Under the pieces are notes generated by a model. The model did no database searches, had not been told where the DNA came from, and was given only the letters and a program-made list of their open reading frames with translations. The position numbers and the translations under genes were made by a program. DNA of 64,000 bases from an uncultured Gammaproteobacteria bacterium (GTDB lineage: Bacteria > Cyanobacteriota > Vampirovibrionia > LMEP-6097), in the NCBI GenBank assembly GCA_964438425.1, contig CAYTKM010000001.1, positions 752,401 through 816,400 on the forward strand, in the 5' to 3' direction. Positions within the stretch are counted from its first letter, which is position 1, and each line of letters opens with the position of its first letter. Positions 46,389 to 64,000 of this stretch are shown in pieces.

Positions 46389-47912
46389 TTGTTAATATTG
46401 ATAGATATGCTCACTATTGATTACACTAAATTTAGTAAAATTACCACCGACAGCAGGCAAGTTAGCCAGCAGTCAATTTTTGTATGTATTAAAGGTGTCT
46501 CAACTGACGGTCATCAATATATAAAACCTGCTATTGAAAATGGTGCGGCGCACATCGTTATTAGCAAAGAATTTTTTGAAAGTAATCAGGTACTTATTGA
46601 AGATTTTAAAACAAGCTCTCAAGTTGACTTTGAAATTACTGAAGATACTAGCTTAAAACTAACTGAAATTCTTAAAGCTTATTATAAAAACGCACTTGAA
46701 AAGGTCACTTTATACGGTGTGACTGGTACTAATGGTAAAACTACGATCACGCATTTAATCCAGGAATTAATGTCAGATAAGCAAGGTAGTTGTGCCATGC
46801 TAGGTACTATTGGCTTTAAAGCTAGTCCTAATAAAGAGTACGAAGAATTAACTAACACTACTCCAGCACGTGAAATTGTTTATGACTATATTAACCAAGC
46901 TAGCCAGCAGGGAGCAAATAGCCTCACTATGGAAGTTAGCTCTCATGCTTTAGACCAAGGTAGAAGTGCTGGACTTAATTTTAAGCATGCGATAGTTAGT
47001 AATTTAACTCAAGATCACCTTGATTATCACCAAACCATGGATAATTACTTTGAAGCTAAAGCAAAGCTTCTAGAGCAAACCGAGGATCAGTTAATTGTAA
47101 ATCTAGATGATAGTTACGCTCAGCGTTTCATGTCTAAAGCTAAAGCTTCGATAACTGTTTCACTAAAAAATAAAGAAGCCGATTTATACGCTAGTAAAAT
47201 AGAAATCTCTGATGGAGGTCTATGCTACGAGGTAACTTTAAGTGAGGCTTTTAAAACAGCTTTTAAGATTTCAGTGAGTAGTTTTACTCTTAAAACTAAA
47301 CTGAATGGTATTTTTAATGTTTATAACACTTTGCTTGCTAGCACACTTGCGCTGATTGAGGGCATGGACACTGACACTTTAGCTGATAGACTAGTTAAGA
47401 TTGAGCCGATATCTGGGCGTTTTGAAACTATTACTGAACCTCAAAAACCACTTTGTATAGTGGATTATGCGCACAGTCCTGATGGCTTGAAAAATATTTT
47501 AACGGGTGCGCGCGCTTTAATCGATAAGACAGCTGAGTATGAAAAATTAATTTGTATTTTTGGTTGTGGTGGCGACCGTGATATTACTAAAAGACCGATC
47601 ATGGCAAGCATAGCCTATGAGCTATCAGATTATGTCTATGTGACTTCTGATAACCCACGTACTGAAGATCCTGCACAGATTATCTCAGATATACTAGCTG
47701 GCATGCCTAACCTCGATAAGGTAAAAGTGCTTGAAAATCGGGCTGAGGCTATCGCTGAGGCTATTAGGCAAGCTACTGCAAATGACGTGATTGTAGTAGC
47801 AGGTAAAGGGCATGAAGATTATCAAATATTAAAAGATAAAACTATAGATTTTGATGACAGGCTTCATGTTAAAGAGGCTTTAAAAGCTAGCTCCTCTTCC
47901 CAAAGCAACTGA
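46389..47912 (+). CDS. murE: UDP-N-acetylmuramoyl-L-alanyl-D-glutamate--2,6-diaminopimelate ligase (MurE); solitary, no dcw neighbours
   Basis: Mur ligase P-loop YGVTGTNGKTT; DNPR motif (SDNPRTEDP) consistent with DAP-type MurE; true start may be a downstream Met (MLTIDYTKF). Confidence 0.9.
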   Translation: MLILIDMLTIDYTKFSKITTDSRQVSQQSIFVCIKGVSTDGHQYIKPAIENGAAHIVISKEFFESNQVLIEDFKTSSQVDFEITEDTSLKLTEILKAYYKNALEKVTLYGVTGTNGKTTITHLIQELMSDKQGSCAMLGTIGFKASPNKEYEELTNTTPAREIVYDYINQASQQGANSLTMEVSSHALDQGRSAGLNFKHAIVSNLTQDHLDYHQTMDNYFEAKAKLLEQTEDQLIVNLDDSYAQRFMSKAKASITVSLKNKEADLYASKIEISDGGLCYEVTLSEAFKTAFKISVSSFTLKTKLNGIFNVYNTLLASTLALIEGMDTDTLADRLVKIEPISGRFETITEPQKPLCIVDYAHSPDGLKNILTGARALIDKTAEYEKLICIFGCGGDRDITKRPIMASIAYELSDYVYVTSDNPRTEDPAQIISDILAGMPNLDKVKVLENRAEAIAEAIRQATANDVIVVAGKGHEDYQILKDKTIDFDDRLHVKEALKASSSSQSN

Positions 47913-48886
47913 TAAACCAGATTTATAGCAAGTTCCTTAGCGATACTTGGTAAATTGTCATGATTTAATACTAGCCGATCATTTTTAACTTCCTGCGTGA
48001 AGTTATCGAGTTCGTATGGGTTAGTTTCTTTTAATTCGAAATATTTCACCGAGTGAGCTGCTAAGTGCTTTTGAACTTTATAATATAAATTTTGATTGGC
48101 TAAAACAGCTTCATAAATCTGAAAATTAAGCAGGTTGTTAGTGCCTTTAAGTGGTTTTAGATGATTAGGGTTTTTTATTAAAATAATTTTATCTTCTTCT
48201 AAAGAAATTAAATGAGAAGCTTTATCTTCAGATTCGTTATTTCGGTATTGTTTAAAATTTTTTTTAAATTCCTGCAACTTGATCTCACATAAATTCAAAT
48301 CTTTACTAATATGCAACATGTTAGGCTGATCTGAAATAGAGATCTTTAAAGTTTTAATGGTATCTATGGTATTTAGTACGATATCAAAGATTACATTAGG
48401 GTTCAGCACACAGTCACAGGCGCTAATTGCATTTTCATAACTTTTAAAAAACTTTTCAGATAAAGATTCTATGGCTGATTTCTGGGCTGTTTGTTGATTA
48501 CCTAGTAAAAGTTCACTATGCTTTGCGATACGATCAAAGGCGTCTTGCTCATTATTTAATAAAGTTTGATTAATAATTCTAATAAACGGCTGAGCATCGA
48601 AGATGAAGGCTTTAGCTTTAAAATACCAAGGTTTGCCGGCAAGCAGTTCAGCGAACTCTTGTTGTTTGCTAGCTAGAGTTTTAGGGTCTCTGTATTTGAT
48701 AGCTTCAGTTAGGCGCTCTAAAGTTTCGCACGCTAGTTGTTCTTTTAAAGCAAACCGCTCGTCATAACTTTTATTTGTTATTTCTACTAATTTGACTGAG
48801 ATTCTAAATGGTAAGAAGTGGTATTTATCCAAATCGTAACTTTGGAAAGACTTATTAAATTTTCTTACTACCTCAGCTAATTTCAT
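47864..48886 (-). CDS. Hypothetical helical protein (340 aa), ORFan
   Basis: Long ORF; 3' end overlaps murE 3' end by ~49 nt; no motif recognised. Confidence 0.45.
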   Translation of the reverse strand: MKLAEVVRKFNKSFQSYDLDKYHFLPFRISVKLVEITNKSYDERFALKEQLACETLERLTEAIKYRDPKTLASKQQEFAELLAGKPWYFKAKAFIFDAQPFIRIINQTLLNNEQDAFDRIAKHSELLLGNQQTAQKSAIESLSEKFFKSYENAISACDCVLNPNVIFDIVLNTIDTIKTLKISISDQPNMLHISKDLNLCEIKLQEFKKNFKQYRNNESEDKASHLISLEEDKIILIKNPNHLKPLKGTNNLLNFQIYEAVLANQNLYYKVQKHLAAHSVKYFELKETNPYELDNFTQEVKNDRLVLNHDNLPSIAKELAINLVYQLLWEEELAFKASLT

Positions 48887-48943: not shown

Positions 48944-49723
48944 ATGGTTTTAAGCAAAAGAATTATTCCCTGCCTAGATGTTGACCAAGGACGTGTGGTC
49001 AAGGGTGTTAACTTTGTTAACATTAAAGACGCTGGTGACCCAGCTGAACTAGCTCTAAAGTACTATGAGATGGGCGCAGATGAAATCTGCTTTTTAGATA
49101 TTACAGCAAGTCATGAAGCTCGTAAGACCACTTATGAAATCGTCTCTAAAACAGCTAAACAGATTTTTATTCCACTTACTGTAGGTGGTGGCGTAAATAG
49201 TGTAAGTGATGTTGAAAAGCTGTTACTGGCTGGAGCCGATAAGGTTGCTATTAATTCTGGTGCGGTGAAAAATCCAGAGTTAATTAATGAAGCCAGTAAG
49301 TGCTTTGGTAAGCAATGTATAGTGGCAGCAGTTGATGTAAAAAAGGTTACTGAAAATGAGTGGCATGTATTTACCATGGGTGGACGCCATGATACAGGTT
49401 TAGATGGTATCGAATGGATTAAAGAGCTTCAAGAGCGCGGTGCTGGTGAGCTTTTACTTACTAGCATGGATGGAGATGGCTCTAAGCAGGGCTATGATAT
49501 CGAGCTGACTACAGCAGTGGCTAAGTTCTTAGAGATTCCAATGATTGCAAGTGGCGGTGCTGGTAAGCTTGAGCATATTACGGATGTACTTAAAAGTGGT
49601 GCTGACGCTGCTTTGCTAGCTTCTATGCTACATTACGGTGAAACAACCGTAGGTGAAATTAAAGATTTTATGAATCGTCACCAGATACATGCGCGCGCGC
49701 AAAATGATTCTATAATATTTTGA
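48944..49723 (+). CDS. hisF: Imidazole glycerol phosphate synthase cyclase subunit HisF (solitary)
   Basis: [51 protein letters not shown] motifs; 259 aa. Confidence 0.9.
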
Positions 49724-49745: not shown

Positions 49746-50666
49746 TTATAAGGCAAATTTAAGATGGTTTATTAAATTTAAAGTATCTATCTTGAGCTGT
49801 GAAAGCGGCTCCGATTTGATTAAGAGCTCTTTATAAAAGTTGACTAAAGACTTAAGTAACAGGCTTTTTTCACTTTCAGAAATTTTAAAACTCTTCAAAT
49901 CCAATATTAATTGATACACTTTTTTATTATTGAAGCTGTTATAACGGCTAACATCATAAAAGTTAGCTTCTGAATCGACATTAATATCTAAACCAGATTC
50001 AGTATCTATTTTTACTGGAATAGCTAAAGGTAAGTCTATCTTGTTATAAGACTCTTCGATATAAAAAGCTGGCTCGTAGCAAGGTAATTCTCGTTTATTT
50101 TTAATAGAAGTCAATTTAAAGCCAAGGTCTTTAATAAATTCACTGCGCACACCCTGTGATAAACAGTCACCATCTAAATTGTTTAGTTTATCTATTAAGT
50201 ACAAATCCTGATTTAACTTCTCTATATCCAGCTCCGTTCTATCCAGACCGAAAATATACTTATCAATAGCAAAGTTCACGGCGTAGAGTTTATAGTCATA
50301 CTCAATATCAAATTGATTATTATTAACTAATTTGCCAGCTATATTTTTTTCGTAATGCAACTGCTCAGCTTGTAAAATTTTCTTTAAACGACGATCAAGA
50401 CTACCTGACCATTTATTTTTATGGTTTAGTTTTAAATTATCAATTTCGGTTTGTAGGTTTTGATAGGTTTTTTCATCAAGCTTGATAATTTTATTTTCTA
50501 AACCATTAATAATGTAATGTAACATTACCGATTTTTGTTGTATGTCAGCTCTAGCTAGCCTATCGATAATTTCATCGATAGCTGTACTACCTAAAATTTC
50601 CCAAAAAAAACTATCATGCTTTGAGGCAAATTGGTTTGAAGTAAATTCTGAAAACTTTTGCTTCAT
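49746..50666 (-). CDS. Hypothetical protein (306 aa), ORFan
   Basis: Long ORF, Asn/Lys/Asp-rich, no motif recognised. Confidence 0.45.
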   Translation of the reverse strand: MKQKFSEFTSNQFASKHDSFFWEILGSTAIDEIIDRLARADIQQKSVMLHYIINGLENKIIKLDEKTYQNLQTEIDNLKLNHKNKWSGSLDRRLKKILQAEQLHYEKNIAGKLVNNNQFDIEYDYKLYAVNFAIDKYIFGLDRTELDIEKLNQDLYLIDKLNNLDGDCLSQGVRSEFIKDLGFKLTSIKNKRELPCYEPAFYIEESYNKIDLPLAIPVKIDTESGLDINVDSEANFYDVSRYNSFNNKKVYQLILDLKSFKISESEKSLLLKSLVNFYKELLIKSEPLSQLKIDTLNLINHLKFAL

Positions 50667-50779: not shown

Positions 50780-52189
50780 ATGAGCGAACTAAGGTATGAA
50801 TTATTAGAAGACTTTAAAGATTATAATCAGTCTTCGCTACTAAGAATTAGTCTTCAAGAATACGCTGAAAAAGGCGCTGATGTGTTTAATGCAGATAAAA
50901 CAAAAGACATCGTTCCTAATGCTATTACTAATAGCTATCCGCACGCTTTATCACTAGCTAGAATTGTGGTAAGTCAGCTTAAAAAAATTACACTTTTAGC
51001 CGATGAGAAATTCTTGGTACTTGAATGTGGCTGTGGTTCAGGGCTATTTACCAGAAATTTTCTAACAGCCTGCCGTAATTTAGAGATTTTAGATAAAATT
51101 CACTATTTAGCGAGTGATTTTGCAGAAACATTTTTAAATCAAATCAAACTCAGTGACTTACTTTGCGATTTTAATGAAGGTGAGCATTATAGTTTGATCA
51201 CTTTAGACTTGTTGAATATAGATCTATGTAAAAATTTAACTACCAGTCAGTCCTATGATTTAAAAAATTTGGATTTCGTGATTCTAAACTATGTTTTAGA
51301 TGTCTTACCGATGAGTGTTTATAAAAAAGTGCTACCTAATGAAGCTGCGGGCGCTAGTGAAGATGTTATTGATAGTGAAAGCAAGCTTATCAATGACAGA
51401 AATATTGAAGCTGAAACCTTAAAGCATAGTCCTAAGTTTCAAAAATTACAGCTAAAGCTAAGCAAACCTGAGGCTAAACAATCAGTACTGGCTGAATTAA
51501 AGGTAGAGGAGCGCTGGCAGGAGACTGATTTTAATGAACTTGAGAAACTTGAATTTAAGCATCTTGAAGTGCTTAAGTCATACGCAGATGTTTTTGCGCC
51601 AGACACTCGTCTTCACTTTAGTTATGGAGCAGTCGAGGTTATTAAGCAGCTGATTATTAAGTTAAGTGAACGTGGCTTTATTTATGCCTGCGAGGTGCCG
51701 TTTGCTAAATACTATGAGACTACGAACTATCAGATTTATAATAACGTACTTGTACATATGATTAATTTAGGGCAATTAAAGCTAAGTCTAGTCGATGAAA
51801 CACCAGCTGACACTTATGGTGATAATTATTTTCAAAGATTAATCATAGCTAAAAATTCAGAGACCTATAAAAGTTATCAGCTAGCTTTCAAAAGAGAATT
51901 TATCTACGAAAATAATACTACAGCTTACTATGAGATTAAACAAGCAATTAGAAAGCTAAAATCTCCCCAAAGCATAAAATATAGCTGGCCTTTAATTGAA
52001 AATTTAAAGACTCTAGACCCAGTTTCAGCGACTTACTGGTATTTTAAGGCTGAGTATCATAATCTTACCTATGAGCTTACAGAAGCTTATCAAGCTTATT
52101 TAAAAGTGCAGGAATTAGATATAACTTCTGAGTATGAAATCAAAGAAAAGCTAGCTAGTTTAGCTAAAGCTTTGCAAATAAATAATTAA
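50780..52189 (+). CDS. Class I SAM-dependent methyltransferase-like protein (possibly MidA/NDUFAF7-like) with helical C-terminal region
   Basis: Motif I-like FLVLECGCGSGLFTRNFL (compare MidA LVELGPGRGTL); 469 aa. Confidence 0.5.
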   Translation: MSELRYELLEDFKDYNQSSLLRISLQEYAEKGADVFNADKTKDIVPNAITNSYPHALSLARIVVSQLKKITLLADEKFLVLECGCGSGLFTRNFLTACRNLEILDKIHYLASDFAETFLNQIKLSDLLCDFNEGEHYSLITLDLLNIDLCKNLTTSQSYDLKNLDFVILNYVLDVLPMSVYKKVLPNEAAGASEDVIDSESKLINDRNIEAETLKHSPKFQKLQLKLSKPEAKQSVLAELKVEERWQETDFNELEKLEFKHLEVLKSYADVFAPDTRLHFSYGAVEVIKQLIIKLSERGFIYACEVPFAKYYETTNYQIYNNVLVHMINLGQLKLSLVDETPADTYGDNYFQRLIIAKNSETYKSYQLAFKREFIYENNTTAYYEIKQAIRKLKSPQSIKYSWPLIENLKTLDPVSATYWYFKAEYHNLTYELTEAYQAYLKVQELDITSEYEIKEKLASLAKALQINN

Positions 52190-52224
52190 GCTTACTAAAA
52201 GCCATTTGGCATATAATTTATTGA

Positions 52225-52977
52225 ATGTCTAACAACCAAATCGATGAATTTGCTAAGTGCTTTGATGATATTGCGGAAGACTTAGCTTGGTATTTAAAGC
52301 GTAATTATAAAAGTAGAATTAGATACCAGACTCATAATATAGAAACTAGCTTTAATAAAATTTTAGATAAAATTCAGGAGTTGGATGATTATATGTTTAA
52401 TACAGGTGATATCGAATTTTTGCATTCATGTCGATATTTAAGAAATTATATATTTCATAACAATCACCATCAAGCGATTAAAGATCTTAATAAAAGCTTT
52501 GTTACTAAGTTTAAAAAAATTCACCGTAAAGTATGTAAACCGATTACTGATGCTGAAGGGTTTAAGTCGGTTAGACAACTGCAAACAGCTAAGTGGACAG
52601 ATAAAGTGGAAAAACATGTCAAGCTGATGAAGTTACATGATCTACGTTTCATACCTATCTTAGTTAAAGGTAAACTGGATGGTATATTTAGTAGAAACAC
52701 TTTTTATGAAGCTTGCATAGACTCTGAAGCCTTTTATTACGATAGTACTACTAAATTAAATAATCCTGACCTTAAAAACTACATAAAATTTGATGAGAAA
52801 ATGATGGACTACGTGAAATTTGTGCCTAATAACTTACCGATATTCCTTATTGATGAAATATTTTATAAAGAAATGAAAAAGGGTAGTAAAACCAGCTTGC
52901 TGATAGTAACTGAAGATGGTAAAGCTAACCAGAAGGTTGAAGGTATGTTTAGCATCTGGGGGCTGTCAAGTTTATAA
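52225..52977 (+). CDS. Hypothetical protein: N-terminal helical domain with HEPN-like Rx4H motif + C-terminal CBS-pair-like region
   Basis: CRYLRNYIFHNNHH (R-x4-H); CBS-like strand-helix motifs FIPILVKGKLDGIFSRNTFYEA and SLLIVTEDGKANQKVEGMFSIWGL; 35 nt downstream of the MTase-like gene. Confidence 0.45.
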   Translation: MSNNQIDEFAKCFDDIAEDLAWYLKRNYKSRIRYQTHNIETSFNKILDKIQELDDYMFNTGDIEFLHSCRYLRNYIFHNNHHQAIKDLNKSFVTKFKKIHRKVCKPITDAEGFKSVRQLQTAKWTDKVEKHVKLMKLHDLRFIPILVKGKLDGIFSRNTFYEACIDSEAFYYDSTTKLNNPDLKNYIKFDEKMMDYVKFVPNNLPIFLIDEIFYKEMKKGSKTSLLIVTEDGKANQKVEGMFSIWGLSSL

Positions 52978-53010
52978 GTTGAAGATAATAGGCTAATTTA
53001 AAGTTTTAAA

Positions 53011-54003
53011 TTAATCCACTGCGTTTTCAAGTTCACTACCATCAATAAATTCAGCGAAGTTCTTAATAGTAGTACCAGCAATATTTAATAGAGCGTTTCT
53101 AGTTAAAAACGCCTGGTGACCGGTCACTAGAACATTTGGGAAGCTTAGCAGTCTGGTTAGTTGATCGTCGTCAATTATTTTATCTGAGACATCTTCAAAA
53201 AATATGCCAGCTTCTTCTTCATAAACATCTATACCTAAGTAAGCAATTTTCTTAGACTTTAAAGCCTGGATCGCAGCTTTAGTGTCGATTAAAGCACCTC
53301 TACTAGTATTAATAAGCATGACACCAGTTTTCATCTGAGCTATTAGTTTTTCATCAATCATATGATGAGTATCTGGAGTTAAAGGGCAGTGCAGGCTTAT
53401 AATATCTGACTTACTAACTAATTCATCAAGCTCAACTTTAGTTACGTTTTCAGGTTCTTTTTTTAAATAAGGGTCAGCTACCAGTACTTTTGCGCCGAAA
53501 CCATTTAAAATATTAGCCATACATTCACCAATCGCACCATAGCCGATTAAGCCGACATTTAAACCATGTATATCAAAACCTTCCAGACCAGCTAAAGCAA
53601 AATTACCTTCGCGCACACGGTTATAAGCTTTATGAGTTTTACGGTTTAAAGTTAAAATTAGTGACATAGCATGCTCAGCTACCGCATACGGTGAGTACTT
53701 AGGTACTCTAGCTACTTTAATACCGTATTTTTTGCAGGCATCTAAATCTACATTGTTAAAACCCGCACATCTAAGTAAAATTAACTTAATGCCGAACGTA
53801 TTTAATTTTTCTATCACATCAGCGCCGCAGTGATCATTTACAAATATACAGATCGCTTCATAATCTTTAGCTAGATCTACAGTCTTTAAATCTAAAGCTG
53901 GCTCGATATATTCAAATTCTATATCTTTTGAAGCAGATTTATCTAAAGCCTGCTTAAAGTGCTCGACTTCGTATTTTTTACTATTAAACATTAAACATTT
54001 CAT
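53011..54003 (-). CDS. D-isomer-specific 2-hydroxyacid dehydrogenase (D-lactate dehydrogenase-like), NAD-dependent
   Basis: Rossmann GLIGYGAIGECMANILNGFGAKV, catalytic R/E/H context (TSRGALID, VTGHQAF); 330 aa. Confidence 0.85.
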   Translation of the reverse strand: MKCLMFNSKKYEVEHFKQALDKSASKDIEFEYIEPALDLKTVDLAKDYEAICIFVNDHCGADVIEKLNTFGIKLILLRCAGFNNVDLDACKKYGIKVARVPKYSPYAVAEHAMSLILTLNRKTHKAYNRVREGNFALAGLEGFDIHGLNVGLIGYGAIGECMANILNGFGAKVLVADPYLKKEPENVTKVELDELVSKSDIISLHCPLTPDTHHMIDEKLIAQMKTGVMLINTSRGALIDTKAAIQALKSKKIAYLGIDVYEEEAGIFFEDVSDKIIDDDQLTRLLSFPNVLVTGHQAFLTRNALLNIAGTTIKNFAEFIDGSELENAVD

Positions 54004-54297
54004 TACTTTAGACCTTTACTTATTAAATATTATTTGTGTTTTTAAACAAGCTTAAAACTCACTAACTCTCTAGTGAATGCTATTTACACTTAACTTAATA
54101 CTATTTAAGTTATTTCCTTTGTCACTTAAATAGCGAAACCATAATACAGCTTAGCTAAGTAATACAATGGTTTCAAATATTTATAATATCAAATAAGCGC
54201 TTAATAAATAATATGGAATTAAATTTATTTTTTCATTACAAAATTCCAATTAATGCAAGCAGCAGTAAGTAGTAGTTTTATTATAAATAATAATTAG

Positions 54298-56400
54298 CTA
54301 ACTAGCGCTGGTCGCTGGTTGTGATTCTACTTTACGAAAAACTGAGCGGCTAAGAATCACCGCAACATCTTCTATGTCAGGAGCTTTAGCAATGCCAGTT
54401 GTGTTAGCTGAACTTAACATTATATTACAGTATGGACAAGCTACCGCGACTTTATCAGGGCTATGCTCAGCTAGCTGCTCTAGTCTGTAAGCGTTAATCT
54501 CGCTACCAGGCATTTCATACCAGATCTGCGCGCCGCCGCCGCCACAGCAGGTGCTTTGGGTTTTTTCTTTAGCAATGGCTTTTAATTCGACTCCAGGAAT
54601 ATTTTCTAAAATATAACGTGGTGGATCCATCACGCGGTTGTATCTGGCTAAATAACAAGGATCATGGTAAGTAATAGTTTCATTAAGTTCGATGCTTGGT
54701 CTAAGTTTGTTGTTGGCGATTAGGTCAGCTAGAATTTCACTATGATGATAGACTTCTACATTTTCTAAACCGAAGTTTGGATATTCGTTTTTAAAAGTAT
54801 TATAAACATGCGGGCATTGCGTGATAATTTTTTTCACTCCGTAAGCTTTCATAATCTCGATATTTTCTATCACGATCTCTTGATACATCGCTTCATCGCC
54901 CGCGCGGCGCGCTACATCACCTGAGCTTTGTTCCTCTTTACCTAAAACTGCGAACTTTAAACCAGCTTCACTAAATAGCCTAGCGTTAGCGATAGTCACT
55001 TGCATATTTTTACTGTCGTAAGCACCTGGGCTACCTACCCAGTATAGGTATTCAAAGTTTTCAGAGTTTTTAGCTAGTACCTGGATGTCTAGATTATGAT
55101 CTTCTGTTACAGTTTTAATCCAGTTTAGTCTATCAGCAGCTGGCAAACCCCAAGGATTAGATTTAGTACGTACATTTTTTAAAGTGCTTTGCAGGTTGGC
55201 TGGAGCTTTATTACTAGCTAGTAAACCACGGCGCATATCAACTATGCTATCAACATGTTCGATTAGTACCGGGCAAGCTTCCACGCAGGCATAGCAGGTA
55301 GTACATGACCATAAAACATCTTCAGAAATGTGACTGTAAATGTCGCTTTTATTTTCAGTATCTGTGTAAGATAGCTGCTTAATATCTAGCATTAGGTGTT
55401 TAGGAGAAAGTGGTTTATCAGTGTTAACAGCCGGGCATTCCACGTGGCAGCGCCCGCAAGCAGTGCAAGCTTCACTATCCATTAGGGTTTTCCAGCTCAA
55501 ATCTTCATAGTTAAAAACACCAGCATTAAACTGCTCTTCATCGATCTCGATGCCCTTTTCTTCAGCTTCGAGCATATCCATTAATTTAAAAGGCGTATTT
55601 AGTTCACCGCGCGCGCGTCTAGATTTAAAAAAGATACTAAGCGGAGCAGTCATAATATGAATAAATTTAGTACGTGGTAATAGTGCGATAAAAGTAAAGG
55701 TAAGTACAGCATGTAGCCACCATAGACTTTGATGCGCGCTAGCTTGGTCAGCTGGAGTCATAAAACGAAATAGACTAGCTAGAGAATTACCTATAAAAGC
55801 ATAAGGCTCACTGGCATTAGTGCCAGCTATTCTTAAAGCCTCAGTTAAAAAACCAGTAATAACGAAAGCAAGTAGATAAGCAGGTTGAATCCAGTCATGT
55901 TGTCTACGATCAAGTTCACGTGGGTTAATGATGTATCTTCTCACGGTAAAAGCGATCACCCCTAAGAGTAAAAATAGCCCACCAATTTCAGCAGCTACGC
56001 TAATTAATTTGTAAAAACTACCCTGGAAAAAGTATGGACCTATATCCTGGGTGTAATCTTGCACGGCAACTATATTAGTTACTATCCACAAGGTCATGAA
56101 ACCTAAAAATACACCGATATGCGCTAAGCCTGGAACTTTACGTTTAGCTGTTTTTTTCTGCAAGAAAGCATACTGGAAAACATATTTAAGGCGACCTAAT
56201 AGATTATTAGTACGCGGCTCATATGGCATAGATTTGCCGTTAGTGATAGTTTTTAATCTTTTATATAAACCTGTAAGGAAAAACCCTACGCTAACTACAG
56301 CTAAAGCATAAAAAACGAAATGATGCCAGAAACCATGAAGGTTCCACCAAAGCTCACGCGTATCAAGGTTTACATTTGGTAATATTAAGTTGTATTCCAT
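54298..56400 (-). CDS. Membrane-anchored Fe-S oxidoreductase: N-terminal NarI/HdrE-like di-heme b domain fused to HdrD/GlpC-like 2x[4Fe-4S] + two CCG domains
   Basis: Five to six N-terminal TM helices with conserved His (HGFWHHF, HIGVF, HQSLWWLH); ferredoxin motifs CTACGRCHVECP and CTTCYACVEACP; CCG motifs ...ITQCPHVY... and TCCGGGGAQIW; 700 aa. Confidence 0.75.
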   Translation of the reverse strand: MEYNLILPNVNLDTRELWWNLHGFWHHFVFYALAVVSVGFFLTGLYKRLKTITNGKSMPYEPRTNNLLGRLKYVFQYAFLQKKTAKRKVPGLAHIGVFLGFMTLWIVTNIVAVQDYTQDIGPYFFQGSFYKLISVAAEIGGLFLLLGVIAFTVRRYIINPRELDRRQHDWIQPAYLLAFVITGFLTEALRIAGTNASEPYAFIGNSLASLFRFMTPADQASAHQSLWWLHAVLTFTFIALLPRTKFIHIMTAPLSIFFKSRRARGELNTPFKLMDMLEAEEKGIEIDEEQFNAGVFNYEDLSWKTLMDSEACTACGRCHVECPAVNTDKPLSPKHLMLDIKQLSYTDTENKSDIYSHISEDVLWSCTTCYACVEACPVLIEHVDSIVDMRRGLLASNKAPANLQSTLKNVRTKSNPWGLPAADRLNWIKTVTEDHNLDIQVLAKNSENFEYLYWVGSPGAYDSKNMQVTIANARLFSEAGLKFAVLGKEEQSSGDVARRAGDEAMYQEIVIENIEIMKAYGVKKIITQCPHVYNTFKNEYPNFGLENVEVYHHSEILADLIANNKLRPSIELNETITYHDPCYLARYNRVMDPPRYILENIPGVELKAIAKEKTQSTCCGGGGAQIWYEMPGSEINAYRLEQLAEHSPDKVAVACPYCNIMLSSANTTGIAKAPDIEDVAVILSRSVFRKVESQPATSAS

Positions 56401-56432
56401 TTATAGTAATAATATAGCCTAAATTTAAACAA

Positions 56433-59400
56433 ATGTCCGTTAACACTACCTTAAACACTCCTGAAATTTTTCATAAGCCATTATTCATAAAGCAACTAGC
56501 TAAAAAAGTGATCATTTATGACGGTGCTATGGGCACTAACCTCTTTAGTTATGATCTAAGTATAGAAGATTATGGTGGCGCCGAATATGAAGGCTGCCCT
56601 GAAAACCTAAACTATACTAAACCTGAGATAATTCAGGAAATTCATCGAAATTTTTATCAAGCTGGCGCTGATATTGTCGAAACTAATACCTTTGGTGCTT
56701 CGATTATTACGCTAGCTGAGTATAACCTTCAAGACAAGTGTAGAGAAATTAATATGCTCGCCGCTGCGCTGGCTCGCGAAGTTGCAGCTGAGTTCACCGC
56801 AGCCGAGCCCGCTAAGCCACGTATGGTCGCGGGCTCGATCGGTCCTGGAACTAAGCTGCCATCTTTAAATCATGTCGGCTTTGATGAACTTAAAGAATCA
56901 TATAAAGTGCAGATTAGAGCTTTAGTGGATGCGCTGGTTGATGTGATTTTAATTGAAACCTGTCAGGATCCTTTGCAGATTAAAGCCTGCATGATCGCTT
57001 GTTTTGAAGCTTTTCAGGATATTGAAGCTGAAAATAGTGAGCTTACTAATGAGCAGTTAGCTGAAAAATACCCGAATGCTGTCATCTATGAAAATGATAC
57101 CAGTGGGCGCGCAGGTCTTTATCAAAGATTTCGAGTGCCACTACAAGTGCAGGTGACAGTCGAGCAAATGGGAACTTTGCTAGTAGGCTCAGAACTTTCA
57201 AGCGCACTTACGACTGTTTCAGCTTACCCGATAGATATTTTCGGTATGAACTGTGCGACTGGTCCTAAAGAAATGCAGGAGCATTTGCAGTATCTGTCAC
57301 TAAACTCTCCATTCCAGATTAGTTGTTTGCCGAATGCTGGTATTCCAGAGAATGTATGTGGTCACGCGCATTTCCCGCTTAAGGCAGGTGAATTTACAGA
57401 ATACATGACTAAATTCATAGATAAGTATCAGCTAAGGGTAGTCGGTGGTTGTTGTGGTACTAGCTACGACCATATAAAGATGCTAAATGATGCTTATGAG
57501 GCTAGTGCTACTGCTAGTAAAGATCAAGCTAGGCTAGATTCGCTTTCGGAAACTAGCACTCTAAACCAGGACTTAGATAAAAACGATGTTTCTGATGAAG
57601 TCCAGAATGAAAGCAGCCATAGTAACTTTGCATGTGAAAGTACGAAAAATAATCTAACCAGTCCACAAAGCACTGAAAATAAACCTATATATAAAGACTC
57701 TGAAACTTTAATGGAAGCTTCAGCCCAGCCGATGGGGCGTAGACTTGAAAGTAACATTTTTAACTATGTTTCAAGTGTTTACGGTAATTTAGATATGGAC
57801 TTGGAGACTAAGCCGATTATAGTCGGTGAAAGAACTAATGCTAATGGCTCTAAAAAATTCCGTGATTTGCTGGCGGCTGAAAACTACGAAGAGATTATAG
57901 ATCTGGCTAAAGAGCAGTTAGCTGAAGGCGCGCAAATTTTAGATCTTTGTGCTGCGTTTGTCGGACGCGATGAGTCGCGTGATATGCAGGAGATTTTAAA
58001 AAGAGCTAACACTGCAGTTAATATTCCGATTATGATCGATAGCACAGAATCCAATGTGATTGAGGATTCCTTAAAGCTCATTTCAGGTAAATCGATTATT
58101 AATTCGGTAAACCTGGAAGATGGCGAAGAGCGCGTAGCTGAGATCGCTAAGCTTTGTAATAAATATGGCGCAGCGCTAGTAGTTTTAACTATTGATGAAA
58201 AGGGCATGGCTAAATCGATCGAAGATAAAGTTAGTATTGCTAAGCGTTTGTATGATCTGTTAGTTAACAAGCATGGTATGCGACCGTATGACCTGATTTA
58301 TGACACGCTAACTTTTACTTTGGGTTCAGGAGATGAGGAGTTTCGTCCAGCTGGCATTAATACCATCGAAGCGATTCGCGAGTTAAAGCGCGCCTTGCCT
58401 CACGTTAAAACTATTTTAGGGGTCAGTAACATTTCCTTTGGTTTAGATGCTAAATTGCGCCCAGCACTTAATTCTGTATTTTTATTTGAGGCGGTGAAAG
58501 CTGGCTTGGATATGGCGATTGTTAATAATAAAAAGATTATTCCTTTACATAAGATAGATGACGAGCTTAAGAAATACTGTTTAGACTTAGTCTATGACAA
58601 GCGTGAATTTAATGATCAAGAGGAAACTACTTACGATCCGCTAACTAAACTTATCGGTCTTGCTGAAAATGTAACTGCGTTTGATAACTCCCAGAAAAAT
58701 CCTTATGAAAAACTAACGACTGAAAAAACATTGGAACAAAGAATCATCGATGGTAATAAAACTAATATTGATGTTGACTTGCAGTTAGCTTTAGATAAAG
58801 GTTATAAACCACTTGAAATCATTAACGGCTTTTTAATGGATGGTATGAAAATTGTCGGTGAGCGTTTTGGAGCTGGTGAAATGCAGTTACCGTTTGTCTT
58901 ACAGTCCGCTACCACCATGAAAGCTGCGGTTGCGTACTTAGAGCCGTTTATGGAAAAGCTGGATGCTTCTAGTCATAAAGGCTCAATGGTACTTGCGACT
59001 GTTAAAGGTGACGTGCATGATATTGGTAAAAATCTGGTAGATATCATTTTAAGTAACAATGGCTATAAAGTGCATAATTTAGGTATCAAACAGCCTGTTG
59101 AAGAGATTTTGAAAGCTGTTGAAGCTCACAAACCTGACTTAGTAGCGCTTTCTGGTCTGCTGGTTAAATCCACTTTAATCATGAAGCAGAATCTGGAGGT
59201 TTTTAATGACAGGAATATAGACGTGCCAGTTATTTTAGGTGGCGCGGCGCTAACTAGAAAGTTTGTTGAGCAGGATTGTGCGGGGCTTTATAATGGTGAA
59301 GTTTATTATGGTGTAGATGCCTTTACTGATCTTGATATCATGGAAGATTTATGCGTGCATAAGATCTCAGCAGCCGAGGTGCGCGAAAAATATCATAAAG

Positions 59401-60335
59401 TGAAAAGTGCTGATAATGACGATCAGGCTTATGAAGTTGTCAGTGAGCAAGAGGAAGAAGAAAATCTACGCAAAGCTATAGAGTTTACTAGTAAACTCTC
59501 TGAAACTAAGATTCTAACCCCAGCTGAAGTGCCTGTGGCGCCGTTTTATGGTTTTAAACATTTAGGCAGTCAGGACATACCTTTAGGTGAAATCTGGCAT
59601 TACTTAAATTTAGATGCCATGATCATCGGACAGTGGCGTATGGGTAAAGGTAAGATGAGCGTTGAGGAGTACGCTGAGCACCGCCGACATGTAATTATGC
59701 CTATTTTAGAGCGTTTGAAACGTGAAACACTTGCTAGTAATTGGTTGCAGGCTCAAGCTGCTTATGGTTATTTCTATGCTAAAGTTGATCCTGAAAATCC
59801 TAATAAACTAAATATATATGATGAGCAGCGTGAAAATATCATCGAAACTTTTGTCTTTCCGCGTCAGTCAGAGAAAAAGAATTTATGCCTGACTGATTAT
59901 TTCAGATTAAGTGATCCTGAAGCCTTTAATTTAGTCGGTTTTCAAATCGCGACCATCGGCGAGTCGGCAGCGAACTTCGTGCAAAAACTCTACACCAGTG
60001 ATGAGTATAGTGAATATTTATATTATTATGGTTTCGCCACTGAATGCACTGAAGCTACAGCTGAGTGGGTGCACGCTAGAGCGCGCCGTGAATTAGGTTT
60101 CGGGGCTGAAGATGTGGCTGAGGTACCTAAGTTACTGCGTGGTGGCTATCATGGTATGCGCTTTAGTTTTGGTTATCCAGCTTGCCCGCGCCTAGAGGAC
60201 CAGGAACAGCTCTTTAGATTATTAAAGGCTGATGATTTAGGTCTTAAGCTGAGTGAAGAGTGGCAGATTCACCCTGAACATAGTACAAGTGCGATCGTGA
60301 TTCATCATCCTGAGGCTAAGTATTTTAATATTTAA
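56433..60335 (+). CDS. metH: Cobalamin-dependent methionine synthase MetH with ~75-aa low-complexity linker insertion (1300 aa)
   Basis: Hcy-binding domain (GGCCGT region VVGGCCGTSYDHI), pterin-binding domain, B12-binding DVHDIGKN (DxHxxG), C-terminal AdoMet activation domain; low-complexity insertion SKDQARLDSLSETSTLNQDLDKNDVSDEVQNESS... between Hcy and pterin domains. Confidence 0.95.
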   Translation: MSVNTTLNTPEIFHKPLFIKQLAKKVIIYDGAMGTNLFSYDLSIEDYGGAEYEGCPENLNYTKPEIIQEIHRNFYQAGADIVETNTFGASIITLAEYNLQDKCREINMLAAALAREVAAEFTAAEPAKPRMVAGSIGPGTKLPSLNHVGFDELKESYKVQIRALVDALVDVILIETCQDPLQIKACMIACFEAFQDIEAENSELTNEQLAEKYPNAVIYENDTSGRAGLYQRFRVPLQVQVTVEQMGTLLVGSELSSALTTVSAYPIDIFGMNCATGPKEMQEHLQYLSLNSPFQISCLPNAGIPENVCGHAHFPLKAGEFTEYMTKFIDKYQLRVVGGCCGTSYDHIKMLNDAYEASATASKDQARLDSLSETSTLNQDLDKNDVSDEVQNESSHSNFACESTKNNLTSPQSTENKPIYKDSETLMEASAQPMGRRLESNIFNYVSSVYGNLDMDLETKPIIVGERTNANGSKKFRDLLAAENYEEIIDLAKEQLAEGAQILDLCAAFVGRDESRDMQEILKRANTAVNIPIMIDSTESNVIEDSLKLISGKSIINSVNLEDGEERVAEIAKLCNKYGAALVVLTIDEKGMAKSIEDKVSIAKRLYDLLVNKHGMRPYDLIYDTLTFTLGSGDEEFRPAGINTIEAIRELKRALPHVKTILGVSNISFGLDAKLRPALNSVFLFEAVKAGLDMAIVNNKKIIPLHKIDDELKKYCLDLVYDKREFNDQEETTYDPLTKLIGLAENVTAFDNSQKNPYEKLTTEKTLEQRIIDGNKTNIDVDLQLALDKGYKPLEIINGFLMDGMKIVGERFGAGEMQLPFVLQSATTMKAAVAYLEPFMEKLDASSHKGSMVLATVKGDVHDIGKNLVDIILSNNGYKVHNLGIKQPVEEILKAVEAHKPDLVALSGLLVKSTLIMKQNLEVFNDRNIDVPVILGGAALTRKFVEQDCAGLYNGEVYYGVDAFTDLDIMEDLCVHKISAAEVREKYHKVKSADNDDQAYEVVSEQEEEENLRKAIEFTSKLSETKILTPAEVPVAPFYGFKHLGSQDIPLGEIWHYLNLDAMIIGQWRMGKGKMSVEEYAEHRRHVIMPILERLKRETLASNWLQAQAAYGYFYAKVDPENPNKLNIYDEQRENIIETFVFPRQSEKKNLCLTDYFRLSDPEAFNLVGFQIATIGESAANFVQKLYTSDEYSEYLYYYGFATECTEATAEWVHARARRELGFGAEDVAEVPKLLRGGYHGMRFSFGYPACPRLEDQEQLFRLLKADDLGLKLSEEWQIHPEHSTSAIVIHHPEAKYFNI

Positions 60336-60657
60336 CTAGTTTTTGTTTTAATAATTTGAAGTGTTTATTTGATATTTGAAACTGATAGTCCGCAAATAGG
60401 CACTAACTAGTCGAGCTTCTTGGCGCATACGCTTAATGATTTCCAAGATATTTTTCACTTGAAAAAATTAGTTCTCTCTAGATGTTTTTGCACTTTTGTA
60501 CTTAAATTTTCATGGAAATACCAAAATTTCTTTCTTTTTTTAGAGATTTAGCTTAAATATAAGTAAAAATGGCACTTAATTAAACATAATATGCTCCAAT
60601 GGAGTAAATGTGCTGCGCCATGACATATAAATTTTAAAAACTATAGCTGTAAATTAA

Positions 60658-60909
60658 GAAACTAGTGCTCCCAATTTGAAAACTAGTGCTTCCAATTTGG
60701 AAACTAGTGCTGTAACTTCGAAAACTAGTGCTCCCACTTAAGAAACTAGCGCTCCCACTTTAGAAACTAGTGCTCCCACTTAAGAAACTAGTGCTCCCAC
60801 TTTAGAAACTAGTGCTCCCACTTTGGAAACTAGTGCTCTCAATTTGGAAACTAGTGCTCTCAATTTGGAAACCAGTGCTGTAAATTAAGAAACTAGCGCT
60901 GCAACTTCA
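60658..60909. repeat. Tandem array: 12 exact-period copies of a 21-bp unit GAAACTAGTGCT-CCCACTTTA (conserved 5' 12-mer, variable 3' 9-mer), non-coding
   Basis: Units read directly at 60658, 60679, 60700 ... 60889 (every 21 nt); degenerate extra copy at ~60641; stops in all six frames. Confidence 0.9.
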
Positions 60910-61070
60910 AATAAGAATTCTTAGCTAAAGCTATTAATTTGCATTTGAAGCTAATTTGAAGTTTCAATTATTCTTGAGATTAACATTTAACAATTACTAG
61001 TGTTTGTCGAGACACCAGAATATAATCTCTAGATTAAGGAATGTGACATTAAGATGTCAGGATGAAAAAA

Positions 61071-64000
61071 TTATAAAGGCATAACGTTTTCATGCTTTAA
61101 ATCGTCTTGAAGATTAGTTTGAATTGGTAAATATTCAAAGATTTGATTGATTTTCTGATTAACCAAATCGTCAAAATTTGAATCCGAATCTGAAAGAAGG
61201 CTTTCAAGACCATCGTGCTTTTCTTGACTATGGAATTTATATCTATTGTCGTCTAGTACTCCTTTTAGTGGTTTTTTCAAAAATTCAAGGTCTATATAAT
61301 GAATTTTAAAACCCAAATTCTTGCTAACTTTATCATAAGTGTATATAGCTGTAAGTAGTATTCTGAAATTAGCAATAAACAGTACGGCTAAATCTTTTAG
61401 ATTGTAATAATTATTTCTTATATACCAACCTGATGAATTACCTTGATCAGCAAATCTCTCTTTTTCATATAAAATTCCAAAATATTCAGCATAAGCTTTC
61501 AAATAATACTTAACTTGATTATATCCTTGATTTACTACATATTCATTAGGTTGACTTGTTTCAAGCTGAGATGCCTTTTTTTGCAAAGCCTGTAAATGAG
61601 ATTTAATTTCACATACTGTTTCGTGAAATTGATCTGAGTTTTGGTTAGATATTAGTTCTTCTATTCTCTCTATAAATCTATCTACTTTTTGAGTATCGAA
61701 TACATCATGCATAGGTCGCTTACATCTAAAAGCATTATTTAGAGAAGTGAATGACGTACTTTCAAACTCATTAAGCCTATTACCTATTTGGTGGGGGGCA
61801 CTATGAATATCGGGTTCATCAGACATGACAACACCATTTAATAATGTCCATTGCTTAATATCTGGGTCAAGTGTAAAACGAGTCTTAAATTTAGTAAGTT
61901 CATCTTTAAAATCCTTAATATTAGTAGTAGTCCGGAAATCCTCGTCGGTGATGATTCTACGATTTAATAGTTCATCTATATCAGACTTCAAATTATCCAA
62001 ATACTCTCCTGATAAAGTTTGTTGTATGCAAAGCAGTGTTTTAGAAAGTAACCTATTAAACTGTTTTTGTAAAATGTTATACATCACACTTCTATCTTCA
62101 GGTGGATTATTTAAGGATTCATCAGAAGTATTAAGTAGAGTAGTATATTGATTGAAACCAAAATTTGAATTAAAAATAAATTGATCTAAGGTATGAAAGT
62201 ATATCTGAGAAATATTGAATGTGCTGGCATTTTGATTCCAAGACTGTAGTAATTCGTTTCCAAGGTCGTATTCAAGAAAGCCAATTAACAACATATCGTA
62301 AAGTTGCTTTTTTTCTGGCTCATTGTAATTGCTATAAGTGTAATTTAAAATTACGTCTAATTTAGCTAATAGGTTGGAGCCAACTTCAAGCTCCCAATTG
62401 TTGTAGCTAGCTGGTACATGTTCAGGTTTTGTTATATCTTTAACAATATTTTCAGTCGTGTAGGTCTTATATTTATCTGAAAAAAACTTAAAAAAGTTAT
62501 ATAAAATTTTCTTTTCACCAGTAACATTGTAAATCTTTATATCCTTAAGACTAGTGGTGTTAAGAATAGCAATTTTAGCTGGATCACGATAGTAAAAATT
62601 CATACGATTAACTATCTCTAAGTTAGTAGATTTTATTTCTTTATAATTTGGACACAAAACAGTATTAAATTCATCTATTAACTCTAAATCATCTATACGA
62701 TCTTTAAGATTTTTACAAAAACAATGAAGTAATATTTCGACTGGAAAATAAATGTTTTTTTCCTTTAGAGAGATATCTAAAAAATCAAAGCAGATTTTTT
62801 CAAGTATTCTATACGAATTTATGTATTTGGATAATAGCGAAAAAGCTGTAATTAGCTTTTTTTCTTTCATTCGAGAATTATTTTCAAACAGCTGCTTAAC
62901 ATTTTCAAGAACTTCTAGTCTATTTTTTAAACTAAAGTAAGTACTTTCATAAGAAATTAACTTAATCGCTCTTTCTATAACTTTAATAACTAAACTTTCA
63001 CTACTAAATTTTACTTGGATCTCTTTATCAAAAATCTTTTCTAAATATATTGATGCTTGATTATCCATATTTGAATTTGCGTTTAAACTATTTTCAATAG
63101 AGCTATTAATTAGTAATTTATCGTATGCTACGAAAATGTAAGTATTAACGAAATCTAGCCTATTTCTGATTAAACCTAAAATATTACGGATATCTTCCTT
63201 GTCTAGTAGACGATCAATATTATCTATGAAAATAAATATTTGCCTGTTATTTTCGAAGATTTTGTTATTGATGTCTCTAAGATTTTGATTAATATTGTCA
63301 TTAATTAGAAATGAATTAAAGTAACTGATCCATGGGTGCAGGGAAGATATTTGAGCTATATAACGTTGTAGATTTTTATTGATGGTGGGTATCTCGCTAA
63401 TTAGTTTGTCTTCAATCTGATCTAAGAAATTTCGAATTAGAAGATCACTTTTTAGAAGATCACTTTTTGAATCGTATTGCCATAAGTCAAAATCTATAAT
63501 AATAGGGTCTGTGCACGCTAAAAAATTTAAAGCTGGACTGTTAGTCTGACCTTCAATAATACTTTTAATTGCTTGCATGTAACTTGACTTGCCAGTCCCC
63601 CAGCCACCAGTGATACCTGTAATAAAACTGTTTCTGGTTTGCGATGATATTTCTTCTTTTAAAGGAGATTCACTCTTATTATTTATTAAGTTATATATAG
63701 AAGTCACATGCTGGAGAACCTCTATTTTAATAGATTCGTTGTAATTTGAAAAACTATAAAGCTGATTTAGGCTTGTGACTTTAGTGCTTTGAGTTTCATT
63801 TAAATAATTACCTAAGTCTATAAAATTCACATAGTCTTCTTCACTGTTAATAGCATTACTTTGATTTAAACTCTCACGATCATCTAAGTATTCTAGTAGA
63901 ATATCGAGTGCACTTTCAGTTGGTACTTTAGTCGCTTTTATATTGTTTGATAGATAAGTTATAAAACCTATAGGTAATGGCAGGATAAATAAAATTAAAT
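61071..64000 (-). CDS. KAP-family P-loop NTPase, large (>975 aa), partial: N-terminus lies beyond window end
   Basis: KAP Walker A GITGGWGTGKSSY (G-x-W-G-x-GKS) and Walker B-like IFIFIDNIDRLL; no TM insertion in the NTPase domain; ~600-aa C-terminal region without recognisable motifs; manual translation shows the frame stays open upstream of the ORF-track GTG (63828-63830) through position 64000. Confidence 0.8.
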   Translation of the reverse strand, partial: LILFILPLPIGFITYLSNNIKATKVPTESALDILLEYLDDRESLNQSNAINSEEDYVNFIDLGNYLNETQSTKVTSLNQLYSFSNYNESIKIEVLQHVTSIYNLINNKSESPLKEEISSQTRNSFITGITGGWGTGKSSYMQAIKSIIEGQTNSPALNFLACTDPIIIDFDLWQYDSKSDLLKSDLLIRNFLDQIEDKLISEIPTINKNLQRYIAQISSLHPWISYFNSFLINDNINQNLRDINNKIFENNRQIFIFIDNIDRLLDKEDIRNILGLIRNRLDFVNTYIFVAYDKLLINSSIENSLNANSNMDNQASIYLEKIFDKEIQVKFSSESLVIKVIERAIKLISYESTYFSLKNRLEVLENVKQLFENNSRMKEKKLITAFSLLSKYINSYRILEKICFDFLDISLKEKNIYFPVEILLHCFCKNLKDRIDDLELIDEFNTVLCPNYKEIKSTNLEIVNRMNFYYRDPAKIAILNTTSLKDIKIYNVTGEKKILYNFFKFFSDKYKTYTTENIVKDITKPEHVPASYNNWELEVGSNLLAKLDVILNYTYSNYNEPEKKQLYDMLLIGFLEYDLGNELLQSWNQNASTFNISQIYFHTLDQFIFNSNFGFNQYTTLLNTSDESLNNPPEDRSVMYNILQKQFNRLLSKTLLCIQQTLSGEYLDNLKSDIDELLNRRIITDEDFRTTTNIKDFKDELTKFKTRFTLDPDIKQWTLLNGVVMSDEPDIHSAPHQIGNRLNEFESTSFTSLNNAFRCKRPMHDVFDTQKVDRFIERIEELISNQNSDQFHETVCEIKSHLQALQKKASQLETSQPNEYVVNQGYNQVKYYLKAYAEYFGILYEKERFADQGNSSGWYIRNNYYNLKDLAVLFIANFRILLTAIYTYDKVSKNLGFKIHYIDLEFLKKPLKGVLDDNRYKFHSQEKHDGLESLLSDSDSNFDDLVNQKINQIFEYLPIQTNLQDDLKHENVMPL

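Follow-up and report, generated by a model that had tools for sequence, protein, structure and literature searches.

The window analysed here (64,000 nucleotides of contig CAYTKM010000001.1, from an uncultured bacterium assigned by GTDB to the Vampirovibrionia) ends inside a large minus-strand gene for a KAP-family P-loop nucleoside triphosphatase (NTPase). The complete product, P0001, comprises 1089 amino acids (aa), of which the window holds aa 115-1089. According to our sequence comparisons, its nearest relatives constitute a large, experimentally uncharacterised clade of proteins with the layout of an N-terminal membrane bundle of three to four helices, the KAP NTPase and a helical C-terminus, and within this clade P0001 stands alone as a longer and highly divergent member. 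We tentatively propose, at somewhat less than even confidence, that P0001 is a single-gene, membrane-anchored defence protein of the PifA-like branch in which the KAP NTPase serves as a switch. The proposal follows the precedents set by EF_KAP-type proteins, PifA and Tmn.

A role of KAP NTPases in conflict was proposed two decades ago. In 2026, KAP NTPases fused to unknown C-terminal regions were first shown to act as single-gene phage defences (PLoS Biol, PMC13552941). P0001 is a divergent variant among KAP NTPases fused to uncharacterised regions. New here are the definition of the clade architecture, a confident model of one representative and a survey of these solo genes in apparently defence-rich neighbourhoods. 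P0001 is an extreme outlier with an orphan tail and hence a poor choice for first experiments. It illustrates the extent to which such proteins can diverge; the clade at large is more attractive to study.

Architecture of P0001 and its clade

Read downwards from 63998, the frame of the KAP gene meets a single stop, the TAA at 61071-61073, compared with 85 and 151 stops in the other two minus-strand frames. At the composition of ~29% GC, 975 stop-free codons would occur by chance with a probability of about 1e-37. The gene is real. An earlier note, made on the window alone, had described a gene running off the edge with a product of more than 975 aa. This was correct: a JGI metagenome contig (L001), which is 100% identical to window positions 51071-64000 (12,930 bases) and adds ~2 kb, places the start codon at virtual coordinate 64340, 340 bp past the window edge. 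The sequence of the KAP gene region is identical across three independent samples. GC content is 28% for the gene overall (24-33% along its length), compared with ~35% for the window and genome, which fits acquisition by transfer or fast evolution.

The in-window translation matches the Pfam model KAP_NTPase (PF07693) at 70.2 bits and E 2.3e-19 (gathering cutoff 20) over profile positions 11-258 of 293, so that the family assignment made in the earlier note stands on a hidden Markov model (HMM) hit. Of the motifs on which that assignment had been based, the Walker A (GGWGTGKS) agrees with the family pattern GxxGxGK[ST], and a Walker B-like motif (IFIDNIDR) is present. P0001 keeps the Walker A residues G245, W247, G248, G250 and K251, which are invariant in 46 of 46 relatives, and it also keeps D373, D376, R377, K435 and R511. 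Compared with the Walker B pattern hhhhDDxDR of the family, the first Asp and the DR pair are there, and Asn replaces the second Asp (position 374), a residue found in all 46 close relatives. Of 151 relatives whose motif is recognisable, 145 carry Asp and three Asn at this position, and the more distant KAP protein P0283 also reads IDNLDR.

Four N-terminal segments of P0001 are strongly hydrophobic (aa 17-44, 53-71, 75-93 and 109-130; Kyte-Doolittle peaks 1.8-2.1), and AlphaFold models all four as helices. P0001 is therefore not soluble, contrary to what had been claimed: it carries a four-helix N-terminal membrane module, as do most of its nearest relatives. This module is made up of 114 residues encoded beyond the window and 16 residues at the beginning of the in-window part (LILFILPLPIGFITYL); the window edge cuts helix 4, and helices 1-3 are encoded entirely outside. 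Transmembrane helices inside the P-loop domain, as described by Aravind et al. in 2004, are reportedly typical of many KAP proteins and not universal. Their absence from P0001, also stated in the earlier note, is borne out, since the stretch from Walker A to Walker B contains no hydrophobic segment and no 19-residue window in aa 131-980 reaches a Kyte-Doolittle value of 1.6. The same holds for the relatives: among the 124 best ones in which Walker A is recognisable, two or more hydrophobic segments precede this motif in 99, and in none does one lie between the two Walker motifs. Of the 82 relatives that reach 780 aa or more, 77 have an N-terminal membrane module; the typical length is 830-880 aa. 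Members of the clade (~850 aa; e.g. P0122, P0271 and P0272) are annotated merely as KAP family or hypothetical proteins. The linker that joins the module to the NTPase is longer in P0001 than in the relatives, placing Walker A at aa 245 instead of ~190-215.

As a side observation, the cytoplasmic tip of P0001 (aa 1-15, L001 1701-1745; MSKLSELCEKCKDHP) shows a CxxCxxH pattern right before the first membrane helix. Judged from the residues, this could be a small metal-binding knuckle, or chance.

A word-indexed search of 5.8 billion proteins returned P0001 itself as the sole hit, and a scan of the GTDB species representatives gave no close relatives. In an exhaustive HMMER search of 1.84 billion cluster representatives we obtained 670 matches at E <= 1e-3, with the query alone below 1e-30; the best non-self match (75 bits, 35% identity) covered the NTPase only. 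Nearly all matches are confined to query aa ~230-530, and some reach aa 540-634. In profile comparisons with hhalign, the NTPase (aa 233-450) aligned to the 46-member clade profile with E 8.8e-36. The N-terminal region gave a weak match of 83% probability, which may reflect transmembrane composition. The clade HMM is collinear with P0001 over aa 18-730. Shared with the clade are the membrane bundle outside the P-loop domain, a Walker A of the form GxWGxGK[ST], a Walker B ending in DR, K435, R511, the F/Y-Y-F motif, collinearity to ~aa 630-730 and the occurrence as a solo gene. P0001 differs in being 200-250 aa longer (linker and tail) and in a C-terminus of ~450 aa without detectable relation.

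This C-terminal part had been described in the earlier note as two-thirds of the protein without a recognisable motif. Indeed it contains no known domain: against Pfam, NCBIfam, PADLOC, PHROG and PDB sequences the C-terminal region gave no accepted match, so a known enzymatic domain, which would have pointed away from a novel region, was looked for and not found. The extent was overstated, as similarity to the relatives remains collinear until ~aa 530-634; for this reason we place the part without detectable relative, as far as homology searches can define it, at roughly aa 635-1089, i.e. ~450 aa. Past the NTPase and its helical lid, the HMMER search of the 1.84 billion representatives gave no second significant stretch. 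Aligning aa 451-1089 to the clade profile with hhalign yielded E 0.6, and phmmer of aa 531-1089 against 162 relatives gave nothing significant. Beyond the NTPase, the only clade residues present in P0001 are R511 and the F-Y-Y triplet at aa 582-584; a homologue of the C-terminal helical domain of the clade, with its motifs SIxxPxxFxxYF and LSxxEF, was not found in P0001. Self-comparison of the tail was empty, revealing neither internal repeats nor coiled-coil arrays. A Flp_N hit at aa 1001-1053 (in-window aa 887-939; E 0.019, below cutoff) was rejected as a chance match, and weak hits to a cGAS chain and an ABC-F protein in a profile search of PDB sequences (E ~1e-3) were likewise treated as chance.

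Predicted fold and likeness to known defence NTPases

AlphaFold2 modelling of P0001 was based on a 47-sequence alignment. The predicted local distance difference test score (pLDDT) is 80-95 for the NTPase and moderate for the membrane helices; beyond ~aa 560 it falls to 33-70 in an all-helical model, so that a fold search on the C-terminus is not meaningful. For the clade representative P0271 (865 aa, 91-sequence alignment) we obtained a confident model (pLDDT 90.3, predicted template modelling score 0.80), which begins with a bundle of membrane helices and continues through the P-loop domain, a helical lid and a beta-hairpin element to a large helical C-terminal domain. Foldseek searches of the PDB with the P0271 and P0001 models gave as top matches RdrA of the RADAR system, archaeal/eukaryotic ORC/Cdc6 proteins and plant NLR resistosomes (E 1.7e-6 to 4e-4, probability 1.0, identity 11-16%, TM-scores 0.2-0.3); from a viral structure library, generic ATPases alone were matched. 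As far as the models allow, the likeness is a resemblance of the switch-module fold, not membership in these families. What P0001 has in common with RdrA, ORC/Cdc6 and STAND/NLR proteins is a nucleotide switch flanked by accessory domains. It differs from RADAR in that the KAP locus has no RdrB partner, and sequence HMMs of the NACHT, NB-ARC and RdrA type in Pfam and PADLOC were not matched by P0001.

Another protein to compare is PifA of the F plasmid, which excludes phage T7 and with which P0001 shares the KAP NTPase fold, the single-gene organisation and, in our proposal, an effect at the membrane. Similarity over the full length was not found, the C-terminal halves being unrelated, and PifA is devoid of transmembrane helices (PMC13001434). 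Upon T7 infection, PifA leads to membrane depolarisation and nucleotide leakage, as summarised in PMC13001434, where Cheng 2004 and Schmitt 1991 are cited. EF_KAP, along with three further KAP fusion proteins, confers phage protection as a single gene, and this protection requires the Walker B motif as well as the uncharacterised C-terminus (PMC13552941). Like P0001, proteins of this type combine in one polypeptide membrane helices, a KAP NTPase and a large C-terminus without known domain or structural similarity (PMC13552941). The likeness is one of description: EF_KAP carries a single N-terminal helix, a second helix inside the KAP domain and a 322-aa tail (PMC13552941), whereas P0001 has four N-terminal helices, none in the domain, and a tail of ~450-600 aa. 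Tmn is a membrane-bound P-loop NTPase that acts as a single-protein defence with sensor arms and Mg2+ export (PMC13001434); compared by description, it belongs to another family and has two helices inserted inside its P-loop domain. QatA shares the KAP-type ATPase, and P0001 gives a weak N-terminal match to its HMM; the NCBIfam QatA score is 17.8 bits against a cutoff of 600, and neither QatB, QatC nor QatD is found nearby.

On these grounds, a division of labour within the polypeptide can be envisaged. The C-terminal helical region would sense an invader-derived cue, the cytoplasmic KAP NTPase with its ORC/STAND-like helical lid would act as a nucleotide-dependent switch or oligomerisation motor, and the four-helix module would deliver the output at the membrane, in the manner of PifA-type permeability lesions or Tmn-type ion export. 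If the membrane bundle is the effector, the clade would represent a new route from nucleotide switching to membrane-level immunity. A bolder version, which we consider rather improbable, is that the ~450-aa C-terminus is a previously unseen sensor or effector and that the four-helix bundle forms a channel or lesion upon NTP-dependent oligomerisation, a KAP-based counterpart of the resistosome pore. If true, it would mean that hundreds of bacteria, some of them non-photosynthetic relatives of cyanobacteria, possess a single-gene defence of a new mechanistic class.

Clade neighbourhoods and competing explanations

Up to two open reading frames (ORFs) on each side were surveyed at 80 metagenome loci of the clade, giving 220 neighbours, 117 of them immediate. 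No neighbour family recurs across the 80 loci (the largest cluster has four members), which identifies the clade as a solo gene. Comparison of the 117 immediate neighbours with Pfam and PADLOC models revealed components of type I restriction-modification (Methylase_S 3, N6_Mtase/HsdM_N 2, ResIII 3), N6_N4 methylases (2), TIR_2 (2), SEFIR (2), AbiEii-like AAA_21 (2), BrxL (1), ApeA (1), a DrmD-like fragment (1) and type IV restriction models (up to 4), in a raw tally made without a background control and in which the same neighbour can be counted under several families. These neighbourhoods are suggestive of defence. All 46 sampled clade members match the PADLOC models of PifA (best 1.2e-64) and QatA, and 40 of the 46 match the defence candidate PDC-S20. 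For P0001 itself, PifA is the best defence-model match (46.4 bits, profile positions 35-253 of 720, NTPase only). A defence reading, for which the earlier note had pointed to the recurrence of the family in anti-phage defence islands, stays plausible only through associations at the level of the family and recent literature; it finds no counterpart at the locus itself.

Several points weigh against a defence role, among them the uncontrolled nature of the tally. Three clade members viewed gene by gene lie among housekeeping genes. Around the P0001 gene we found no nuclease, integrase or restriction-modification gene; the flanks hold metH, a gene for a thiamine pyrophosphate (TPP)-dependent enzyme and a gene for an AAA_16 protein, i.e. 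no recognisable defence island, and the nearest ~13 kb on one side and ~3 kb on the other are free of PADLOC-grade defence genes. The C-terminal model of P0001 is of low confidence, and the sensor role is a proposal. Finally, P0001 has replaced residues at positions that are invariant or nearly so in the 46 relatives (D374N, R/K389G, Y410L, Q438D, P444K, D512I and N518F), and by analogy with EF_KAP its NTPase may bind nucleotide and hydrolyse it poorly, or be decaying.

One alternative is that P0001, as a membrane-associated NTPase, regulates some cellular process other than defence. The housekeeping context, here and around the three clade members just mentioned, would suit such a role, as would the fact that P0001 matches no PADLOC model at full length. 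We nevertheless regard it as unlikely: the orthologues expected for a cellular protein are absent, no other of the 1.84 billion representatives reaching E 1e-30, and the neighbours of the clade are variable and often defence genes, while the GC content of the KAP gene is atypically low. Furthermore, no KAP, AAA_16 or TPP enzyme gene was found at the metH loci of 19 Melainabacteria-like metagenome-assembled genomes (MAGs), loci that are too distant (<=69% identity) for the presence or absence of an island to be scored by metH synteny.

The replaced residues raise the further question of whether a four-helix KAP gene, drifting under AT mutational pressure, is here in decay or catalytically dead, its product having ceased to work as an NTPase switch. 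In EF_KAP, the Walker B exchanges D246A and D247A each abolished defence (PMC13552941). D374N, a change of the GAT-to-AAT type, could therefore matter, as it is equivalent to D247A; it is no proof of inactivity, since Asn also occurs in three of the 151 relatives and in P0283. Between Walker A and Walker B lies a perfect 15-bp tandem duplication (KSDLL-KSDLL) at a place where the relatives show an alignment gap in hhalign, and which looks, from its sequence, like a recent slippage insertion. This duplication, the replacements R/K389G, Y410L and P444K together with D374N, the low GC content and the expanded, Asn/Lys/Ile-rich linker and tail of low pLDDT would all be in line with decay. They also fit rapid evolution in an AT-rich genome. 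Decay seems to us a quite unlikely explanation, given that the frame of 1089 codons is intact at 28% GC, where ~8% of random codons are stops, that Walker A, the first Asp of Walker B, the DR pair, K435 and R511 are kept, and that the sequence is the same in all three samples.

Locus, downstream array and other features

The coordinates of the features are collected in Table 1. The window is chromosomal, as indicated by metH, a HdrD/CCG-type iron-sulfur protein gene, a 2-hydroxyacid dehydrogenase gene, hisF, murE and rpsD. A plasmid or phage origin of the region was considered and dismissed, megablast of 60400-64000 against PLSDB being empty. The metH gene is convergent with the KAP gene, and its best relatives (<=69% identity) come from Melainabacteria, Vampirovibrionia and Caenarcaniphilales MAGs, so that the host probably belongs to the non-photosynthetic relatives of cyanobacteria.

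Table 1. Parts of the KAP gene and features near it (window positions unless stated otherwise)
Feature	Position	Strand	Basis or remarks
KAP NTPase gene, in-window part (aa 115-1089 and stop)	61071..64000	-	ORF; L001
Fourth N-terminal hydrophobic (transmembrane) helix, C-terminal half, aa 115-130 (LILFILPLPIGFITYL)	63951..64000	-	Kyte-Doolittle, AlphaFold
Asn/Ser/Glu-rich linker between membrane module and NTPase, ~100 aa, aa 131-229	63654..63950	-	pLDDT <50 at aa 137-201
KAP-family P-loop NTPase domain, aa 230-491	62868..63653	-	PF07693; hhalign; pLDDT 80-95
Walker A GGWGTGKS, aa 245-252	63585..63608	-	read from sequence
Perfect 15-bp tandem duplication, KSDLL-KSDLL	63437..63468	-	Tandem Repeats Finder, 2.1 copies, 100% match
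Walker B region FIFIDNIDR, aa 369-377	63210..63236	-	D373, D376, R377 conserved
Post-NTPase helical region, aa 492-634, collinear with relatives; R511, F/Y-Y-F/Y at aa 582-584	62439..62867	-	HMMER, clade alignment
Orphan C-terminal region, aa 635-1089, predicted all-alpha	61074..62438	-	homology searches, AlphaFold
Terminator-like hairpin, ~53 nt downstream of the KAP stop, before the array	60997..61018 (L001 5023-5044)	-	consensus scan, weak pattern match only
21-bp tandem array, 11.9 copies, consensus AATTTAGAAACTAGTGCTCCC	60652..60900	.	between convergent metH and KAP gene
AAA_16/ATPase_2 gene	L001 461-1624 (virtual window 64417-65580)	-	metagenome contig L001

Upstream of the KAP gene, where nucleases, sensors or the remainder of an island had been suspected, lies on the same strand a gene for a 387-aa AAA_16/ATPase_2 protein, separated by a gap of 76 bp and followed by a divergent, housekeeping gene for a TPP-dependent acetolactate-synthase-like (ilvB-like) enzyme; the suspicion was thus not confirmed. 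The AAA_16 protein shows 63-70% identity to the best 120 matches listed, and all 8,000 candidates scored significant; its relatives are found in MAGs of Alphaproteobacteria, Bacteroidota and other groups. At six loci, its homologues occur solo in varied contexts, some by prophage-like genes (Minor_tail_Z, ParB, resolvase), and the gene is probably horizontally mobile. The protein also gives a weak match to PADLOC mad8 (E 3.5e-7) and matches a PHROG of unknown function.

That the KAP gene is the second gene of a two-gene system with this AAA_16/ATPase_2 protein could be argued from their adjacency, common orientation and narrow spacing, from the mad8 match and from the variable, partly prophage-associated positions of the AAA_16 homologues. 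We hold it to be very unlikely. None of the six AAA_16-homologue loci has a KAP gene nearby, and among the 220 neighbours at the 80 loci of the KAP clade there is no AAA_16-like protein. The gap contains a promoter-like site matching 10 of 12 positions (a consensus match only), and the GC content of the AAA_16 gene is ~36% compared with 28% for the KAP gene. A single-gene KAP NTPase, as proposed above, accords with the solo occurrence of the clade.

At two other loci (L025 and L032), KAP relatives of 749 aa (L025 6001-8250) and 727 aa (L032 6001-8184) occupy the same position in two genomes, downstream of genes for a peptidase M3 and an MFS/PTR2 transporter. The genes that follow differ, one encoding a protein with a LepB_N domain (Legionella effector-type) and the other a ShlB-type transporter, which suggests that the position is a variable hotspot in Legionellales-like genomes.

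Downstream, the KAP gene is directly adjacent to the 21-bp array, as the earlier note had pointed out, the array starting 170 bp past the stop. Each unit contains the palindrome ACTAGT. The array is found nowhere else in the window (nine pattern matches compared with 0.02 expected) and is non-coding, there being no ORF of at least 50 aa in 60336-61070. It has no match in Rfam, and a pattern of two units gave no match in the metagenome collection. Plasmid iterons were first suspected and then discarded, as no replication initiator gene is nearby and nothing was found in support. No link between the array and the KAP gene could be shown; the terminator-like hairpin lies between them.

Two observations concern the remainder of the window. 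Pfam, PADLOC and PHROG gave no match for four ORFs in a row (47864-48886 and 49746-50666 on the minus strand, 50780-52189 and 52225-52977 on the plus strand); hisF (48944-49723) lies between the first two, with housekeeping genes around. In the 1300-aa product of metH (56433-60335), ~110 residues (aa 355-464) between the homocysteine-binding and the pterin-binding domain are without Pfam coverage. Some 70 residues of this stretch (~aa 360-430) have a high content of Ser, Asn, Asp and Glu, and it appears to be a lineage-specific low-complexity insertion.

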